The notes under the pieces were generated by a model, which saw nothing but the letters and a program-made list of their open reading frames with translations, made no database searches and was not told the DNA's origin. A program made the translations under genes and the position numbers. Of a stretch of 64,000 nt of DNA, positions 3,280-63,137 are shown in pieces. This DNA is from a bacterium (GTDB taxonomy: Bacteria; Bacteroidota; Ignavibacteria; Kapaibacteriales; Kapaibacteriaceae), in the NCBI GenBank assembly GCA_034440235.1, contig JAWXBR010000054.1, positions 73,131 through 137,130 on the forward strand. The letters run 5' to 3'. The first letter of the stretch is position 1. Each line of letters begins with the position of its first letter.

Positions 3280-5048
3280 TGGCCGAGACCAAACCACGCG
3301 CAGGTGCCTTACGAGAACTCCGCCGCCTCGTACCCTATCTCAAGAACTATAAAACCCTCGTTTTCTGGGGTCTTGTCTTTATTACAGCATCGAACATCTG
3401 CTCGACAAGCATACCTCGCATCATCGGCCATGTAATTGATGCGCTTAAGCTGCCCACGATTTCGACAGATGCCGTTTCATGGCTGTTATTGCAAGTACTA
3501 GGTCTAACGATAGGTAGCGGCTTATTCATGTTTGCGACGCGACGTACAATTATTGTGATGTCGCGACGCATCGAAGAGGACTTGCGAAACGACTACGTTA
3601 ACGCACTGCAAAATCAGGCGCAGAAGTTTTATCACGACCGATCGACAGGGTCGTTGCTTGCATTATTTACAAATGACATTGGAGCGGTTCGGGAGTTTAT
3701 CGGACCCGCTGTGATGTACACGGCGAATACCATAACAACCTTTGCATTTGCGTTAACGTGGATGATAATGCTAAACGGTTGGCTCACACTTGCCATCGTT
3801 GTTCCGGTGCCGATCATTGCACTCGTCACGTATCGTCTCGGAAAGAAAATCCACGAGAACTATCGTTCTGTGCAGGAGCAGTACGAGCTAGTGACTACGC
3901 ATGCGCAAGAGACGTTTTCTGGTGTTCGTGTTGTGCGCGCCTATTCGCGTCAGCAACATGAAAGCGATTCGTTTAAAGACATCAACCGCAACTACTACGC
4001 ACGCAGTATGCGTCTGGCTCGGGTGAACTCTTTGCTCATGCCTTCGATGATGGTATTGTTCAATCTCACGTATCTAATTGTTCTCGGTGTAGGGGGCTAT
4101 TCGGTTATTACCAGTGCACTCACTATTGGTCAACTGACACAATTCTTTATCTACTTAAACCAGCTTCTATGGCCGATTGCGGCCATTGGTTGGGTTACGG
4201 GCATGATTCAGCGCGGTGCGGCTTCTATGGGTCGACTTGGTGCAATTATCGACCACGTACCTGTCGTTCGTAATGCAGACAACGTCACGCCCCTTTCTGA
4301 GCCCCTTAAGGGCATTGTCACATTCGATGATGTGTCGTTGGTGTATTCGGGACAACGGCCTGTGCTCGACCACATCGCGTTGCATGTTCCTGCAGCCTCA
4401 TCGCTTGGTATTGTAGGGCAGGTTGGCAGTGGCAAGACTTCGCTTGTGAACCTTATTCCGCGACTTTATGACGTAACCACAGGCACCGTGATGGTTGATG
4501 GCGTAGACGTCCGCGAACTCTCACTAGAGGTGCTACGTGGTGGCATTGCCGTCGTACCACAGGAGTCGTTTTTATTCAGTGAAACGATTCGTGAAAACAT
4601 TCGCTTTGGGCGTCCCGCCGCAACCGACGACGAAGTACTTGCTGCCTCGCGCATAGCACAACTCGACCCTGATGTGCAGTCGCTTCCAAATGGGTACGAC
4701 ACGATTGTCGGAGAACGAGGCATTACACTTTCGGGTGGACAAAAACAGCGTACAGCCATGGCTCGGGCTATTCTTGCACGTCCTGCCATTCTCATCCTTG
4801 ACGATTCGCTTTCAGCAGTCGACACCGATACCGAATCGCGCATTCTTGACGGCTTAAAAGACGTCATGATAGGTCGTACCACAATTCTTATTGCACATCG
4901 CATCTCAACGATCAAAGGCTGCGATTCCATTATCGTTCTCGATCGTGGTCGGATTGTAGAAGAAGGATCACACGACGAGCTCTTGGCTCTCCGCGGTCTC
5001 TATGCAGACATGTTCGAACGTCAACAACTCGAAGAACTCATTGCCTGA
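3279..5048 (+). CDS. ABC exporter with fused permease and ATPase (MsbA/multidrug type)
   Basis: N-terminal 6-TM domain; Walker A GQVGSGKTS, ABC signature LSGGQKQR, Walker B ILILDD, H-loop. Start overlaps the fbaB stop (TAATG). Confidence 0.85.
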   Translation: MAETKPRAGALRELRRLVPYLKNYKTLVFWGLVFITASNICSTSIPRIIGHVIDALKLPTISTDAVSWLLLQVLGLTIGSGLFMFATRRTIIVMSRRIEEDLRNDYVNALQNQAQKFYHDRSTGSLLALFTNDIGAVREFIGPAVMYTANTITTFAFALTWMIMLNGWLTLAIVVPVPIIALVTYRLGKKIHENYRSVQEQYELVTTHAQETFSGVRVVRAYSRQQHESDSFKDINRNYYARSMRLARVNSLLMPSMMVLFNLTYLIVLGVGGYSVITSALTIGQLTQFFIYLNQLLWPIAAIGWVTGMIQRGAASMGRLGAIIDHVPVVRNADNVTPLSEPLKGIVTFDDVSLVYSGQRPVLDHIALHVPAASSLGIVGQVGSGKTSLVNLIPRLYDVTTGTVMVDGVDVRELSLEVLRGGIAVVPQESFLFSETIRENIRFGRPAATDDEVLAASRIAQLDPDVQSLPNGYDTIVGERGITLSGGQKQRTAMARAILARPAILILDDSLSAVDTDTESRILDGLKDVMIGRTTILIAHRISTIKGCDSIIVLDRGRIVEEGSHDELLALRGLYADMFERQQLEELIA

Positions 5049-5110: not shown

Positions 5111-6472
5111 ATGAATGTACACGAGAACATCCTAAGTCTGATTGGCAACACACCACTTGTGCGCCTTAACTCGATAACGCGTGGTGTTAGTGCACCCATT
5201 TACGTCAAGCTCGAAAGTCGCAATCCTGGCGGTAGCGTTAAAGACCGAATAGGCATTGCCATGCTCGAGGCAGCAGAACGCGACGGCCGCATCAAGCCAG
5301 GCGCGTTAATCATAGAGCCCACAAGTGGCAACACTGGAATTGGTCTTGCTCTCGCATCGCGGCTAAAAGGCTATAGCTGTCTGTTCGTGATGACCGATAA
5401 GGCGTCTCAGGAGCGTGTGCGTTATCTGAAGGCGTTAGGAGCTGACGTATTGATTGTTTCGAGTGCTGCAAAGATGACGTCACCAGAGTACTACTGGAAT
5501 ACTGCCAAACGATTAAGCGAAGAGCTGCCAAACGCCATCATGCTTAACCAGTATGACAATCCCGCTAACCCCGACATTCACGAGGCTACGACGGGTCCGG
5601 AAATCTGGCGCGACACCGATGGCACCATCACCCATTACATTGGCAGCATCGGCACAGGTGGCACGATCAGTGGGGTCGGACGCTTTCTGAAGAAGAAAGA
5701 CAAAAACATTAAGGTCATCGCTGCCGATCCGATGGGCTCGTCTATTAAGACATTCAAAGACACCGGACGCCTTGTTGAAGCACTCCCCTACCTGATCGAG
5801 GGTGTAGGCCAGGAACGCATTCCGGGCAATCTCGACCTAACTGTAATAGATGAGATTATAAACATTTCAGATAAAGATGCCTTTATCACAGCTCGTGCAT
5901 TGGCGCGCGAAGAAGGCATTTTCTGTGGTGGGTCTTCAGGAATGATTATTGCGTGCGCATTGCGTGTTGCCAAGCTACTTCCTGCAGACGCATGTGTTGT
6001 GGCAACGGTATGTGATACTGGCGAGCGATACCTTACCAAGCATCACAACGACGAGTGGTTGAAAGAAAATGACCTTCTTGACAAAGATCGTTTTATGATG
6101 CGTGACGTACTTGCAGCAAAGCGCACTCGTGGTACGTTGCCCGCTCTCGTGCATGTAACACCCGATGGTACGTTACAAGATGCGTTGTCGTTAATGCAAT
6201 CACACGAAGTAAGCGACATGCCTGTAATCGACGGCGATGAATTAGTCGGCACTGCACGCGAAAACAAGCTCATGTCGGCAGTGATCGAGAATCGCCAGGC
6301 ATTAACGCGCACCGTTCGCGAATTCATGGAAGCACCAGCCCCAATTATAGATGCGCACGCAGATATATCGAAAGGCATAGGCCTACTGCGCAACGTCCCA
6401 ATGATCGTGGTCTCGGAGTTCGGACGTCTCAGCGGCGTCATCACACGACACGACGTATTAGAGTACCTCTAG
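5111..6472 (+). CDS. Cystathionine beta-synthase / cysteine synthase family PLP enzyme with C-terminal CBS-domain pair
   Basis: PLP lysine motif SVKDRIG, glycine-rich GTGGT loop, and a C-terminal tandem CBS region. ATG at 5111; the track start at 5102 is TTG. Confidence 0.75.
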   Translation: MNVHENILSLIGNTPLVRLNSITRGVSAPIYVKLESRNPGGSVKDRIGIAMLEAAERDGRIKPGALIIEPTSGNTGIGLALASRLKGYSCLFVMTDKASQERVRYLKALGADVLIVSSAAKMTSPEYYWNTAKRLSEELPNAIMLNQYDNPANPDIHEATTGPEIWRDTDGTITHYIGSIGTGGTISGVGRFLKKKDKNIKVIAADPMGSSIKTFKDTGRLVEALPYLIEGVGQERIPGNLDLTVIDEIINISDKDAFITARALAREEGIFCGGSSGMIIACALRVAKLLPADACVVATVCDTGERYLTKHHNDEWLKENDLLDKDRFMMRDVLAAKRTRGTLPALVHVTPDGTLQDALSLMQSHEVSDMPVIDGDELVGTARENKLMSAVIENRQALTRTVREFMEAPAPIIDAHADISKGIGLLRNVPMIVVSEFGRLSGVITRHDVLEYL

Positions 6473-6550
6473 GCATCATCACACGACACGACGTACTAGA
6501 GTACCTCTAGGCGTCATCAAAAGACACGACGTTCTAGGGCATCTCTAAGC
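6436..6550. repeat. Three degenerate tandem copies (~38 bp) of the 3' end of the CBS-enzyme gene, including its stop codon
   Basis: CGTCATCACACGACACGACGTATTAGAGTACCTCTAG, CATCATCACACGACACGACGTACTAGAGTACCTCTAGG and CGTCATCAAAAGACACGACGTTCTAGGGCATCTCTAAGC, read directly. Confidence 0.8.
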
Positions 6551-6579
6551 GCGTAGAGCCAACGCTTCTTTTACCGGAA

Positions 6580-38274: not shown

Positions 38275-38479
38275 ACGTCCTCCTGTGCTTCATGAACCGG
38301 CAAAGATACGCCGCGGGACGCCATGTTGGGAGGGGGCCTCTCAGGGGGCGACGTGCTAACGTTGTTTCGTGAAAGGGACTTTCGTATGTTTGTCGTTCGT
38401 CTAACGCCAATCCCCCGCGTGGGTACGTTGCCGTAGACGGTGTATTGTGAAGTGTACTATCCTGTCGCCATCCGAGGCA

Positions 38480-38803
38480 ACCTTGAACGTAACGAAGGCA
38501 GACATCGTGGATAAAATCGCCAACGAAACCGGGCTTACTAAGCTCGAAACGAAGGCGGTTGTAGATGGATTTCTCTTGAGCATCATCAACTCACTTGCCG
38601 ATGGCAAACGCATCGAATTGCGTGGGTTTGGGGTGTTCAGTGTAAAAAGTCGCAAACCACGCATGGCGCGCAATCCGCGCACGGGCGATCCAGTGCCTCT
38701 CGAAGAGAGGTTCATCCCCACCTTCAAGGTTTCGTCGGAGTTTCAAGAGAAGGTGCACCATAAACTCCGCGCCGATAGTTCTCAGAACCCCAACCCAGCA
38801 TGA
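38480..38803 (+). CDS. HU/IHF-family DNA-binding protein
   Basis: GLTKLETKAVVDGFL...GKRIELRGFGVF...RMARNPRTGDPV is a classic IHF/HU fold signature. Likely TTG start at 38480. Confidence 0.7.
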   Translation, partial: TLNVTKADIVDKIANETGLTKLETKAVVDGFLLSIINSLADGKRIELRGFGVFSVKSRKPRMARNPRTGDPVPLEERFIPTFKVSSEFQEKVHHKLRADSSQNPNPA

Positions 38804-39405
38804 CTTCACGAATGTGGTTGATTGCCCTGCTAATCATAGCAGGCGTTGGCGGAGTTTCCTTTGGTATCAGTCGGTGGTTAACATCACAAGCAGTCGAAGA
38901 CGGTCAGGCGCTCATTCTCGAGCGTCAGAAAAAGCAGGGCGCGCCTAAAGAAGCTGGAGATCCGGAAGCTGAAAAACGCGTTGCCATGCTCGAGCAGATG
39001 TTGAAGGTTGTAAAGCAGAAACTGGTGGAGAACCCCGCCGATAGTATGCTTCTGGTGAGTGCAGGTAACATGTCGTATGACTTGGGGTTATTCCAACCTG
39101 CCGAAGGCTACTACAAATCCTTCCTTGACAACGTAGACCCAGCGAACCTGCGCGTGCGCATCGATTACGCATACGTAGTGTTCCAGAATGGCCGTAAAGA
39201 TGAAGGCATAGGAATCATGAAGAAGATTCTTAAGCAACATTCGAAAGACCAGACAGCTCTGTACAACCTGGGAGTGATGTACATTCAAATGAATAACACA
39301 GACGACGCGCTAAAGACGATGAAAAGATGCAGAGACGCAGAGCCGAAATCAGAACTTGGAAAACGTGCTGCCATGGCAGTCATTCAACTCGAAACAACAA
39401 CATAA
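38800..39405 (+). CDS. Membrane-anchored TPR-repeat protein
   Basis: N-terminal TM helix followed by TPR-like repeats. 4-bp overlap with the upstream gene. Confidence 0.55.
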   Translation: MTSRMWLIALLIIAGVGGVSFGISRWLTSQAVEDGQALILERQKKQGAPKEAGDPEAEKRVAMLEQMLKVVKQKLVENPADSMLLVSAGNMSYDLGLFQPAEGYYKSFLDNVDPANLRVRIDYAYVVFQNGRKDEGIGIMKKILKQHSKDQTALYNLGVMYIQMNNTDDALKTMKRCRDAEPKSELGKRAAMAVIQLETTT

Positions 39406-39439
39406 TCACACTTACAATCACAATTCAGGAGGCATCCCA

Positions 39440-39535
39440 TGCCATGCGGTAAAAAACGCAAGCGCCATAAGATGGCCACCCACAAGCGCAAAAAACGCTT
39501 AAGGAAGAATCGTCACAAGAAGAAGAACAGGTAGT
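39440..39535 (+). pseudogene. Tiny Lys/Arg-rich ORF resembling ribosomal protein bS22, split by a 1-nt frameshift in a C run
   Basis: Strong RBS CAGGAGG 7 nt upstream. Frame 1 reads MPCGKKRKRHKMATTSAKNA*. The -1 frame continues HKRKKRLRKNRHKKKNR* and ends immediately before a rho-independent terminator. Joined, this gives a 31-aa highly basic peptide. Confidence 0.4.
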
Positions 39536-39540
39536 CTATA

Positions 39541-39566
39541 AACCCCGCCCACAAGCGGGGTTTTCT
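39541..39566 (+). terminator. Rho-independent terminator
   Basis: CCCCGCCC-ACAA-GCGGGG hairpin followed by TTTT. Confidence 0.75.
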
Positions 39567-39637
39567 GTTGCCGATTGACGAAAAGTCAATCAAACCACTA
39601 CGCTCTTCATCTTCGCGTTTTCGCATCTCTTTCCTCT

Positions 39638-40579
39638 ATGATCCTCGGACTTCTCGCAGCATTCGGAACTCTTGCGTCGTGGTCGGCAGGTACGTTTTCA
39701 TTCCTGACGGCGTCGCGCCGCATGAATCCGACGCTGCTGAATCGCGCTCGCTTGTTCCTTGCTGTGTGTGCAACGTTTGTGCTTGCATGTGCAATCAACC
39801 TGCTTTGGCCATGGGAGCTGTTCACACGTCCAACAACCTACTCGTGGCTCTTTCTAGGCCTGTCTGGAATTGTTGGCCTTACGATTGGCGATCATTGCGG
39901 CTTTTCCGCACTACGCATCCTGGGGGCTCGGCGCCAGAGCGTCGTAAGCACCATCTCCCCCGCCGCGGCTGCCATTGCAGCATACTTCCTTCTGAGTGAA
40001 CAGTTGTCTATGCAGGCAATGATTGGTATGGGGCTCTCGACTGCAGGGGTCATGTGGGCGTTAGGAAGCGCCGAAGAACGGACGGCAGTTGATAAAGAAG
40101 GTTACGGTTCGTTTGGTGTCGGACTCTTACTTGCAGTGCTTGGGGCGCTGTGTCAGGGACTCGGCCTCGTCCTCGCCAAGATGGGTATGCACCCAGAGTG
40201 GTACGAACCCTCGGGCACGTTTGTACACGAGGTTGGCGGTGTTCAGGCTACGTTTATGCGTATGACCATCGGCTTTCTTGCTGTATACGTTCTCGACTTC
40301 GTAATGCGCGCCCCTTTCCGCCCCTTACGTGAAGCCTTTAAAGACAAGACCGGACGTCGTGCGATGTATTTGGGAACGTTATTCGGACCAATCATTGGTG
40401 TTACACTCTCGCTCGTTGCCGTCAGAGAGATCAGTGCAGCCATCGCACAGACCATCTTCAGCATGGTGCCACTGGTGGTGCTGGCTACAGCCGCCATCGT
40501 CCAGCGTGAACGGATGCGTCCGAGCGCCATCATTGGGGCAATCGTTGCTGTTACCGGTGTAGTTCTATTGGTGCTCTAA
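39638..40579 (+). CDS. EamA/DMT-superfamily transporter (10 TM)
   Basis: Two EamA-like 5-TM halves. Start moved to the ATG at 39638 (MILGLLAAFG), because the track start lies inside the upstream terminator. Confidence 0.7.
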   Translation: MILGLLAAFGTLASWSAGTFSFLTASRRMNPTLLNRARLFLAVCATFVLACAINLLWPWELFTRPTTYSWLFLGLSGIVGLTIGDHCGFSALRILGARRQSVVSTISPAAAAIAAYFLLSEQLSMQAMIGMGLSTAGVMWALGSAEERTAVDKEGYGSFGVGLLLAVLGALCQGLGLVLAKMGMHPEWYEPSGTFVHEVGGVQATFMRMTIGFLAVYVLDFVMRAPFRPLREAFKDKTGRRAMYLGTLFGPIIGVTLSLVAVREISAAIAQTIFSMVPLVVLATAAIVQRERMRPSAIIGAIVAVTGVVLLVL

Positions 40580-40677
40580 CAATTCTAGCTGTTTGTTGTT
40601 GTTGAGATTGTGCTGCGGGAACCATTCGCAGCGCGAGTTCCGTAGGTTTGTGCCTTCACAACACGGAAAAAAACACC

Positions 40678-41484
40678 ATGGCTTCCATCGAACACGTAAA
40701 GCAACTGCTCACCAAGGTTGGCGCACCAGAAATTCTCGAAGATCCCGATGCATTGGCATCGCTTGAAGAAGAGAAGTACGACGCCCTGCTAGAAGCCATC
40801 GACGAAATCCTCGAACTCATCGAAACGAGTCCGAACGACGAAGAAGTCATCGACACGTTATACATCACACACATGACGTTGTCGTCGGCGAACTACTGGC
40901 ACAGTGTGTTGGCAAGTGGCGAACCAACAGAAGAACCAGACGCTCATACAATTTCGAAGAGCTGGGGTGGCGAAGCATTACGTCCGTATGACAAAGATTC
41001 GCTCTCCGACATCATCATAAACTCTTCTAGTATCGACACACTTACAAAGTCTGGCTTACCTGCTTCCGCAGAACCAGGATTGTCGTTCAACGATACCATC
41101 GAACGTCTCGCAGATGTAGAAACACTCGAGACAAGCGACGAAGACGAAGCGAAAGATTACTTCGACCCGTATTGGATGTTAGGTCGCACTGCAGACGACG
41201 ATGTAATTGCACTCGACGAACGTGTAGACGGCGCAGTTGTCGTGCTCGACCGCGACTGGGGCTTTATGTCGATGCGTTACATGAACGCAAGCGTCGGCCA
41301 CCTCCTTGCTACACTCGAAGCATGGCGCAGACTCGAAGAAACCGAAGACCTTGCACCCGCACTCGAACGCTTCACAGAAGAACTCGAAAAACTCGACCCA
41401 GGTGCACTCGGCAGTGGCTCGTTCTGGTCCGACATGCTCGACGAACTCGAAGGCGATGCAGACGATGAGGAGACTGACGCATAG
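40678..41484 (+). CDS. Highly acidic hypothetical protein (Asp/Glu-rich)
   Basis: 269 aa with a very low predicted pI (long runs such as ETSDEDEAKDY and EGDADDEETDA). No catalytic motifs. Confidence 0.5.
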   Translation: MASIEHVKQLLTKVGAPEILEDPDALASLEEEKYDALLEAIDEILELIETSPNDEEVIDTLYITHMTLSSANYWHSVLASGEPTEEPDAHTISKSWGGEALRPYDKDSLSDIIINSSSIDTLTKSGLPASAEPGLSFNDTIERLADVETLETSDEDEAKDYFDPYWMLGRTADDDVIALDERVDGAVVVLDRDWGFMSMRYMNASVGHLLATLEAWRRLEETEDLAPALERFTEELEKLDPGALGSGSFWSDMLDELEGDADDEETDA

Positions 41485-42087: not shown

Positions 42088-42537
42088 ATGGATCCAAACA
42101 CGCAAAAATTACTGTACGGAGTGTTTAAGACGGATATTCAGATCAATGGTGATTTTTTTGATTTGATGGCGTTTCCGATTCGTGCGTCCGTGAGTATTGA
42201 AGGTAAGTTGTCTAGGGACCAGATTGAGCGATATTACCACGATGAATTTGGTCCGAAGTATCGAGGATTTGAGGGCATCCTTGAGTTTAGCTTGAGTCAG
42301 ATTAATGCGATTAACAACGATTTCAAAAAGACTCAAAAAGATATTCCTAAGAAGCGAAGGATTACTACAAAGAGGGTAACGACAAGCAACACGCCTGTCC
42401 AATTGATTTGCAAGACTGTCAGGAGCGGTATGGATTCTGTACTAGAAATCCCGCCCATTTTAACATTCTCGATACTGATAGACCTAATAAGGACTATGAC
42501 AATAACCAACTCTTGGCGTACTTGGCTGAAGCACTGA
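42088..42537 (+). CDS. Hypothetical protein (lower-GC), immediately following the previous ORF
   Basis: ATG 1 nt after the upstream stop. No recognisable motifs. Confidence 0.35.
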   Translation: MDPNTQKLLYGVFKTDIQINGDFFDLMAFPIRASVSIEGKLSRDQIERYYHDEFGPKYRGFEGILEFSLSQINAINNDFKKTQKDIPKKRRITTKRVTTSNTPVQLICKTVRSGMDSVLEIPPILTFSILIDLIRTMTITNSWRTWLKH

Positions 42538-42708
42538 TGGCGGTCGGCAGGTTCCAAGCACCAAATGGTTTATCGGAATTAATCGCTCCGGATGAACCAA
42601 ATCAATAATACGAGTTGGCTGGTTTGGTTTTGGATTATTCACGATCCGTCCTCCTTATTTTCGCGGGATGGGTTCGTCAAAGGGATACGAGAGCAAATCA
42701 TCGCCCAT

Positions 42709-52418: not shown

Positions 52419-52491
<73 letters not shown>

Positions 52492-55534: not shown

Positions 55535-55819
55535 ATGCAGAGTATATTTTCGAGGCTGACTTAATAGATCGCCAGAGAGTCATCAGAAGTTTTGGAGAGC
55601 TTGCTTGCCTTCGTAGGCATAAAATTCATTAGGCCGGCGGCTTGCACTACTCACGTGAGATGGGTCATGCAAAGTCTATCATTCGTTCAAGTGCAAAGAT
55701 AGTTAACGGCTCATTCCAGCGTTGACTCTATTTGAGTGGGAACCCTCCCTGCCAACGATTCTGTGTACACAAAGCGTAGTGTAATTTAAGCTACAAATTG
55801 AGGTCGTACAGGAGGCAGG

Positions 55820-56230
55820 ATGAAGACCGAAGCAATCGTTGTCAATGGCACGTTGGATCGTGTAGAACAACGCAGTACGGAAGTGGTACAGAAGACAGGT
55901 CGTCGCACGTTTAGTGCGGAATACATCAAAGCAATTCTGCAAGAGCTTGATACATGCAAGCACGGAGAGTCGGGCAGAATTCTACGGCGCGAGGGATTGT
56001 ACAGTAAGCAGGTTGCTCAGTGGAGGAAGCAACGCAACAGTGTCGTCGCTGTTCCGAAGCGCGGCCCGAAGGCAACGATGAGTCCTGATACGAAACAGGA
56101 GCTTGCACGGTTGACGCGTGAGAACGCCCGACTGCAGCGCAAGCTTGAGCACGCCGAGCTCATCATCGAGGTCCAAAAAAAAGTGTCGCAACTGCTGGGA
56201 GTAACCGAGTTACAGGACGAGGAGCGTTGA
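55820..56230 (+). CDS. IS3-family transposase OrfA
   Basis: Typical OrfA (RRTFSAEYIKAILQEL...LTRENARLQRKLEHAELIIEVQKK). Confidence 0.85.
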   Translation: MKTEAIVVNGTLDRVEQRSTEVVQKTGRRTFSAEYIKAILQELDTCKHGESGRILRREGLYSKQVAQWRKQRNSVVAVPKRGPKATMSPDTKQELARLTRENARLQRKLEHAELIIEVQKKVSQLLGVTELQDEER

Positions 56231-57241
56231 TGGACGAGATCACAACCCTTGGCCAACGCGTTGGCATCCGTCGGGCATGCAAGGAACTGGCTATGCCACG
56301 CACGACATACTATGCACGGCTCACACCACGCGTACAGACGGAGCGCAAACCACGACCGCGACCTGCACGTGCACTTAGCGAGGAAGAGAAAACACAAGCC
56401 ATCGAACTGCTCACGTGCGAACAGTACGTCGATCAATCTCCAGGCACGATCGTCGCAAGTATGCTGGACAAGGGTTCGTACCTCTGTAGTGAGCGTACCT
56501 TCTATCGTGTGCTTGCATTACTCACGCAGGCTCGTGATCGTCGGCGCACTGCACGGCATCCGGCGTACAGCAAACCCGAGCTCGTAGCACACGAACCCTG
56601 TGAGGTCTGGACGTGGGATATCACGAAGCTCAAGACTGCACAGAAAGGCGCGTACTACAACCTGTATGTCATGCTCGACATGTTCAGTCGCCGCCCTGGT
56701 CGTGGGCTGGCTGCTGGCCTACCGTGAACAGGAAGACCTGGCCTGTCTGTTGATCGATCAGGCGTGTGCACGCGAAGGCATTCTGCCCGAGCAGCTCACC
56801 ATTCATGCGGACAATGGATCCGTGATGCGATCGGGTGATGTGAGTGATCTGTACGTCAAACTCTGCATCACGAAAAGCCACTCACGACCGTACTGCTCCA
56901 ATGACAATCCGTACAGCGAGAGCCAGTTCAAAACCATGAAGTATTCACCTGCATTTCCTGAGCGCTTCGAAAGCATCGAACATGCTCGGGCATTCTGCAC
57001 GGAATTCTTCGACGCCTACAACTACCACATGTATCATTCAGGTCTGGCGATGCTCACGCCTGCAATGGTGCATCACGCAGAAGCCGACCTCGTCATTCGT
57101 AAGCGCCAGAAGGTGCTGACAACGGCATTCTCCGCACATCCTGAACGATTTGTCAACGGTAGTCCGAAGCACCACCTTGTGCCGGTGTCTGTCTGGGTTA
57201 ACAAACCTGTTGAAGATCCAAAAGAAGTGTTAAATTCTTGA
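56230..57241 (+). pseudogene. IS3-family transposase OrfB (DDE), interrupted by a frameshift near 56690-56700
   Basis: ORF 56227..56727 ends ...DMFSRRPGRGLAAGLP*. ORF 56600..57241 carries ...VVGWLLAY...IHADNGSVMRS...SNDNPYSESQFKTMKYS. The two halves of the conserved D-x-F-S-R-x-V-V-G-W region are in different frames. An extra nucleotide lies in a CCC run. Confidence 0.7.
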
Positions 57242-62574: not shown

Positions 62575-62993
62575 TGTGTGCCTACGATTAATGAACCTAA
62601 TTTGGGATTAAGTCTATAGACTGGAAACGTCGGACAAAAGTACCCCCTTCCACTAGTCCTCAAGATCAGTATCGTCTACATATTACGCCTGAACGCAGAG
62701 ATTTGACAGCATTCCTTGATGACGCTGATAAAGAAAGCGATCTCAGCGCCGACACATGTAACACGTACCAGATTCATAGAAACTTCGGACTTCAGGTCTT
62801 TGACCCTATTGATCATTACGACCTAGCTACTTTCGCTAGCTATTACGCAATGACAGCCTAAAACACAACGTATCGGAAAGTTACCGTGCTTTACGACAAT
62901 CAATTCAAGAGCCTAGTTGAGAATGCTTTAGACTTCCTAAATCGCTCGTTGATGGAGATTGAGGATTCACCTAAGTTGGAAAATCCGCCCAAT

Positions 62994-63137
62994 GTGAGCA
63001 ACGAATTCCGCCACAAAGTAAGCAATGAATTCCGCGTTAAAGTGAGCAATGAATTCCGCGTTAAAGTGAGCAATGAATTCCGCGTCAAAGTGAGCAGTGG
63101 ATTCCGCGTCAAAGTGAGCAGTGCATTTCGTAGACCA
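62994..63137. repeat. Six tandem copies of a 24-bp unit (minisatellite) upstream of the ATPase gene
   Basis: GTGAGCAATGAATTCCGCGTTAAA consensus. End copies are degenerate and each copy contains GAATTC. On the plus strand it encodes VSNEFRVK repeats fused to a non-repetitive 36-aa N-terminus (ORF 62886..63158). Confidence 0.8.

Follow-up and report, generated by a model that had tools for sequence, protein, structure and literature searches.

A stretch of 64,000 nucleotides (the window) from a Kapaibacteriota lineage of Bacteroidota contains, at positions 39439..39534 of the forward strand, what is very probably an intact and functional gene for bS22, of the Bacteroidota/spirochaete sequence type. 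It is an ordinary copy of an already known ribosomal protein. An earlier note on this DNA had described a small bS22-like gene broken by a frameshift, and the result reported here is mainly a correction: the locus holds a normal gene copy, with no pseudogene, assembly error or recoding, and hunting for a frameshift or inspecting read pile-ups at this site would be wasted effort. The features of the locus are listed below.

38447..38803 (maximal ORF), + strand: HU/IHF-type DNA-binding protein gene (Pfam Bac_DNA_binding, E 3.4e-27)
38800..39405, + strand: TPR-repeat protein gene, 201 aa (Pfam TPR_19, TPR_6, TPR_14), ending 33 nt before the bS22 ATG
39394..39438, + strand: A/C-rich leader, conserved and unstructured, overlapping the end of the TPR gene by its first 12 nt and including the Shine-Dalgarno site
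39427..39432, + strand: Shine-Dalgarno AGGAGG, 6 nt upstream of the ATG, inside CAGGAGG
39439..39534, + strand: bS22 coding sequence, 31 aa (MPCGKKRKRHKMATHKRKKRLRKNRHKKKNR), ATG start, TAG stop, in a single open frame
39540..39569, + strand: intrinsic terminator with a 9-bp stem (AAACCCCGC/GCGGGGTTT), loop CCACAA and a T-rich tail (TTTTCTGTT)

Reading frame of the bS22 gene

We translated the three forward frames, listed their ORFs and read the sequence from 39200 to 39800. The bS22 frame ended at a TAG stop at 39532-39534, and MPCGKKRKRHKMATHKRKKRLRKNRHKKKNR appeared as one 31-aa ORF in the mechanical ORF list of the window. The earlier note had placed a frameshift in a C-run, giving a reading of MAT followed by six codons and a stop. 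As assembled, the disputed stretch is ATG GCC ACC CAC AAG (GCCACCCACAAG), with all three Cs in place, and no stop interrupts frame 1 between ATG and TAG. When one C was deleted in silico from GCCACCCACAAG, the product became MPCGKKRKRHKMAT-TSAKNA-stop. This is the exact truncated reading of the earlier note, which could be reproduced only by removing that C; therefore, the reported frameshift is a base-counting error, in which one C was dropped in reading. Because the window contains no frameshift, the three explanations offered for it (a sequencing error, a pseudogene or a programmed -1 frameshift) all fall. The 31-aa Lys/Arg-rich peptide that had been proposed after 'repair' is exactly the one encoded by the assembled sequence. 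The gene is also present where it had been located (39440-39535), with both ends given one base too high.

Identity of the encoded peptide

We compared the peptide with all PDB chains by phmmer. The only matches were three bS22 chains, each aligned to the entire window peptide: 9I5V_10, a chain of the Porphyromonas gingivalis 70S ribosome modelled as bS22 (E 7.5e-10); 7JIL_5 from Flavobacterium johnsoniae (E 3.3e-9); and 8FMW_V from Borrelia burgdorferi (E 7e-7). HMMER reported a high bias term for these matches. The peptide was identical to the P. gingivalis protein at 27/29 residues (93%), to the F. johnsoniae protein at 25/29 (86%) and to the B. burgdorferi protein at 21/28. Since Lys and Arg make up 58% of its 31 residues (68% with His included), composition was controlled by shuffling the query. 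No composition-preserving shuffle out of 100,000 matched any of the three bS22 proteins at more than 16-17 residues without gaps, compared with the 21-27 observed. There are 13 residues other than Lys and Arg, and 11 of the 12 comparable ones match P. gingivalis bS22; P2, G4, T14, H15, N24 and H26, which are among the 14 invariant columns of a 12-sequence alignment, are all present. bS22 genes are characteristically short and stand alone, with about 28-31 codons and a very basic product (pI above 12, over half Lys/Arg); the window gene, with its 31 codons and 58% Lys/Arg, fits this description. A single-sequence AlphaFold2 model gave one helix spanning residues 5-29 (mean pLDDT 91.9), which for a short basic peptide that folds on rRNA is weak evidence.

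The earlier note had likened the peptide to bS22 from both mycobacterial and Flavobacterium ribosomes. The phmmer matches bear out the Flavobacterium/Bacteroidota half of this statement, and a mycobacterial likeness was not detectable in sequence. The pattern it gave, KKR.KRMxxKKH.K, is truly that of mycobacterial bS22 (5O5J/5O61 and related entries), a protein without detectable sequence similarity to the window peptide. BLASTP at E<=100 gave no alignment between the window peptide and actinobacterial bS22 (represented by a 33-residue sequence), and a profile of 12 Bacteroidota/spirochaete-type sequences found no actinobacterial or mitochondrial mS38 chain at E<=10. With both searches negative, membership of the actinobacterial type was rejected, and we therefore place the window peptide in a separate sequence type; its tie to actinobacterial bS22 rests on published structure superpositions. 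Mycobacterial bS22 itself weakly reached mS38 by sequence search.

Pfam and NCBIfam scans of the window peptide gave no match. In control scans of the same libraries, three structurally verified bS22 proteins were equally unrecognised; the null results for the window peptide are therefore uninformative and reflect the libraries, not the gene. The COX24_C model PF08213, whose gathering threshold is 23 bits, did not match the window peptide at E<=10, gave only 11.7 bits to P. gingivalis bS22 and nothing to the F. johnsoniae and Borrelia proteins, indicating that the COX24_C / AURKAIP1 model does not capture the Bacteroidota/spirochaete sequence type. COX24_C / AURKAIP1 is the name that NCBI puts on some bS22 proteins. 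At gathering thresholds, Rfam returned nothing near the bS22 locus, and its sole match in the window was a tRNA-Met at 52419-52491. As the curated HMM libraries (Pfam, NCBIfam) are blind to this type of bS22, such genes stay hypothetical or are missed. The remark in the earlier note that micro-ORFs often escape annotation agrees with the literature, in which bS22 went unannotated in Borrelia and was listed as a 'hypothetical protein' in F. johnsoniae and P. gingivalis (PMC7797042, PMC12123416, PMC10618245); yet gene calls for the exact window protein exist in about 1,470 public assembly blocks.

An exhaustive search for representative proteins yielded 332 clusters. The representatives inspected share the same 29-31-aa core, and their extensions are miscalled starts, read-through, adapter sequence or duplication; the search thus widened the sample and revealed no new biology. 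Two metagenome representatives, P0001 and P0003, have an extra copy of the first ~16 residues ahead of the whole peptide (for example, MPNGKKKKGHKMATHK-LSI-MPNGKKKKGHKMATHKRKKRLRKNRHKSK), which may be a real short duplication or may have arisen in assembly. Tails from adapter sequence or read-through occur in other representatives; P0090, for instance, ends in ...CLLYTSDAADE.

Conservation and genomic setting

Eight places encoding the exact protein (L001-L008), listed among the roughly 1,470 assembly blocks, were compared with the window. Their bS22 DNA differed from that of the window at 12-20 of 96 positions, always synonymously, an outcome that is partly built in by retrieval through exact protein identity. 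Among the distinct alleles, the differences fell at first, second and third codon positions in the numbers 16/0/77. An HU-like gene followed by a TPR gene lay immediately upstream of bS22 in 8/8 places, and the window has the same trio. The outer contexts were OmpH-BamA-UppS, as in the window, SppA/HIT, and MutY...RNase G; the last is that of contigs also carrying the Bacteroidota gliding-motility gene GldD, on which the identical 31-residue bS22 is again encoded. These comparisons show that a single amino-acid sequence has been kept despite substantial divergence of the DNA and in three outer gene contexts. A ninth locus, L009, was located in a reference-genome scan through the adjacent TPR protein (79% aa identity) and not through bS22, and is thus an independent sample. 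It comes from a Candidatus Kapaibacteriota MAG, the nearest reference genome; in the NCBI taxonomy, Candidatus Kapaibacteriota resolves within the phylum Bacteroidota. Its bS22 gene had one conservative amino-acid change, N30S, and four synonymous nucleotide changes, with 91/96 nt identical and 87% identity at third positions. Judged from these substitution patterns, the peptide is under extreme purifying selection. The F. johnsoniae type of bS22 extends unchanged into an uncultured Kapaibacteriota lineage, which supports the high conservation published for the phylum.

A consensus scan found no terminator-like site on the + strand of the TPR-bS22 interval, and bS22 probably shares a transcript with the two genes before it, HU-like and TPR; the true start of the HU/IHF-type gene is probably near 38483. 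Two genes downstream of bS22 lies a gene for a SUKH-4 family immunity protein (40648-41484, + strand, Pfam E 1.6e-17), which is found at the same place in L001, L003, L006 and L007.

The strong Shine-Dalgarno sequence CAGGAGG reported earlier was read directly, with AGGAGG at 39427-39432. Only eight AGGAGG sites occur on both strands of the window, and just two of these full sites are located directly upstream of a gene start, the one before bS22 among them. Shine-Dalgarno-like motifs preceded 14/53 long ORFs in the window, compared with ~7% of random sites, indicating that this genome uses such sites. The class Bacteroidia, within Bacteroidota, is known for not using them. Before bS22 itself, a Shine-Dalgarno site was present in the window, L002, L008 and L009, whereas the GldD-carrying loci L004 and L005 have A-rich leaders without one.

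The whole 45-nt leader is identical (45/45 nt) between the window and L009. At third codon positions of neighbouring genes, the identity between the two was 64% for HU, 58% for TPR and 47% for EamA. The bS22 leader and synonymous sites form an island of nucleotide conservation in this pair of Kapaibacteriota genomes, in which the adjacent genes are near saturated at third positions. The 50 nt upstream of the ATG are 72% A+C, compared with a fraction of 0.505 +/- 0.079 for random 50-mers of the window. Structure in the leader RNA was considered and rejected: the minimum free energy fold had a z of -0.75, and the first 37 nt were unpaired. A consensus promoter scan gave a weak sigma-70-like match, TCGAAA-18-TACAAT, at 39389-39418; such sites were no more frequent than in shuffled sequence, and the -35 part is not conserved in L009. 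It is possible that the leader is a strong translation-initiation region, perhaps with an internal promoter. L009 carries, at 3606-3658, a 53-nt insertion of CCGACGACCGAA-like repeats, placed after the stop codon of TPR and ahead of the bS22 leader; it is absent from the window and abuts the 5' edge of the fully conserved 45-nt block.

The leader, the bS22 synonymous sites and the constant HU-TPR neighbourhood might be taken to mark a dedicated regulatory element or a functional link with HU and TPR, which we consider improbable. The candidate element could be a translational operator that responds to free bS22, or to ribosomes without bS22, and so tunes bS22 synthesis; a feedback dependent on the Shine-Dalgarno sequence has reportedly been proposed for bS21 in Flavobacteria. 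An ordinary strong promoter and translation-initiation region, together with codon bias linked to high expression, would account for the same conservation.

The canonical terminator that had been noted after the stop was also found: a hairpin begins 6 nt past the TAG and is followed by TTTTCTGTT. Its G+C-rich stem (39540-39548/39555-39563) had a folding energy of -21.6 kcal/mol and a z of -4.76, with 0/200 shuffles as stable. The hairpin was not flagged by the consensus promoter/terminator scan; it was established by folding and by comparison with relatives. L009 retains it with another loop and one A:T pair changed to G:C in a compensatory way; in L001 and L006, which are more distant, a different hairpin plus T-run stands in its place.

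Three alternatives to an intact bS22 gene were weighed. The peptide is short and rich in Lys and Arg, low-complexity matches are easily inflated, and the HMMER bias term was high, so that a chance short ORF in an A/G-rich stretch, resembling bS22 only through shared Lys/Arg composition, had to be considered. It is left with next to no probability by several observations: none of the shuffles exceeded 17 identities, conservation of the non-basic residues is position-specific, DNA substitutions stay within synonymous sites in lineages whose gene contexts differ, the Shine-Dalgarno site and the terminator bracket the ORF exactly, and frame-disrupting changes were found in 0/9 loci compared. The second alternative is a gene with a 1-nt deletion in the C-run, whether by sequencing error, as a pseudogene or as a programmed -1 frameshift site. 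The sequence offers it no support, as that reading needs one C removed from GCCACCCACAAG; L001-L009 have CCC or an equivalent in-frame codon pair (ACC/ACG CAC/CAT) at this site, and a single frame yields the full conserved product without any frame change. We regard this alternative as practically dismissed.

The remaining alternative accepts an expressed bS22-homologous basic peptide and gives it a different main role, for example as a nucleic-acid-binding partner of the adjacent HU-like protein or as a regulatory or antimicrobial peptide. The HU-TPR-bS22 order, kept in every place examined, and the lack of ribosomal-protein genes beside bS22 would fit such a role. It is nevertheless very improbable, given 93% identity (27/29) to a protein bound to the P. 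gingivalis 70S ribosome and 86% to that of F. johnsoniae, and an rRNA pocket that is described as structurally conserved (PMC10618245). Conservation so extreme is, moreover, typical of a protein contacting rRNA along most of its length. A non-ribosomal role thus appears unlikely from the sequence comparisons, and an intact gene for ribosomal bS22 is the reading that we retain.

Several other features of the window were recorded. An IS3-family-like insertion sequence lies at 55820-57241 (+ strand), with two genes:

55820-56230, + strand: orfA, with a weak HTH_Tnp_1 match and a perfect AGGAGG at 55810
from 56227, + strand, -1 frame: orfB, with the integrase core rve

The -1 frame of orfB relative to orfA is usual for IS3. 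The rve core is itself split between two frames near 56690-56700, with profile positions 2-36 in ORF 56227-56727 and 36-100 in ORF 56600-57241, and the junction reads ...DMFSRR / VVGWLL... in GTCGCCGCCCTGGTCG. This frameshift in orfB is genuine in the window and reflects either a decayed transposase or an assembly error. A 52-aa GTG-start ORF at 42484-42642 (- strand; MNNPKPNQPTRIIDLVHPERLIPINH...), preceded by AAGGAGG at 42650-42656, is a candidate small gene; it lies just downstream of the hairpin plus T-run terminator of the RNase Y gene and had no Pfam match. Two tandem repeats, at 62990-63127 (24 nt x 5.8 copies, 90% matches) and 6434-6551 (38 nt x 3.1 copies, 87% matches), are located near the ends of, or between, long ORFs.

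Proposed role and comparison with known bS22 proteins

Previous work on F. johnsoniae found unassigned density between 16S h44 and h45, touching 23S H70, which was built de novo and matched Fjoh_1533, a 30-aa hypothetical protein with a pI of 12.7 that is highly conserved in Bacteroidetes (PMC7797042). Its structural homology to the mycobacterial protein gave Fjoh_1533 the name bS22, and the Bacteroidota and actinobacterial proteins are treated as structural homologues, not sequence relatives (PMC7797042). A 30-aa homologue occupies the same ribosomal position in P. gingivalis, where its authors proposed that it stabilises h44, forms an extra intersubunit bridge and influences the aminoglycoside pocket (PMC12123416). 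The Borrelia bS22 gene was unannotated, has a GUG start and is among the essential-gene candidates; its product resembles the Flavobacterium type more than the mycobacterial type and, alone among the ribosomal proteins, escaped detection by mass spectrometry, and the rRNA pocket that bS22 fills has been described as structurally conserved (PMC10618245).

On the basis of these orthologue structures, the 31-residue peptide would form an alpha-helix only on the ribosome and insert into the 16S rRNA pocket between h44 and h45, beside the decoding centre. Its C-terminus would touch 23S rRNA H68-H70, adding an intersubunit contact and stabilising h44, so that the peptide would be a constitutive 30S component contacting the 50S subunit. 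The h44/h45 position and the H68-H70 contacts are established for orthologues (PMC7797042, PMC12123416, PMC10618245), and we infer by analogy that the peptide binds the ribosome in the Kapaibacteriota lineage. From the gene layout, the bS22 gene would be transcribed together with HU-like and TPR, and may in addition have a promoter of its own in the 45-nt leader; it would be translated from the AGGAGG site, and transcription would end at the hairpin 6 nt past the stop.

The window peptide is closest to bS22 of its own phylum, F. johnsoniae Fjoh_1533 (7JIL) and P. gingivalis AAQ66340 (9I5V/9I5X), with which it has in common the length class (31 residues to their 30), the pattern MPxGKKRKRHK-ATHKRKKR-R-NRHKKK and, by prediction, the helical form of the modelled chains (PMC7797042). 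It differs from them in having Cys instead of Ser/Asn at position 3 and a C-terminal ...KNR tail. Borrelia bb0822 (8FMW) has the same Cys at position 3, within a common MPCG N-terminus, as well as THKRKK...NRHKK, and its gene is likewise tiny; that gene is unannotated with a GUG start, whereas the window gene has an ATG, a strong Shine-Dalgarno site and is routinely called in metagenome assemblies. Actinobacterial bS22 (Mycobacterium smegmatis/M. tuberculosis 5O5J/5O61; Cutibacterium acnes 8CRX), mitochondrial mS38 (AURKAIP1/COX24) and eukaryotic eL41 match the window peptide in size and in basic helical character. Published superpositions place the bS22 types, mS38 and eL41 in the same rRNA pocket (PMC7797042, PMC12123416, PMC10618245).
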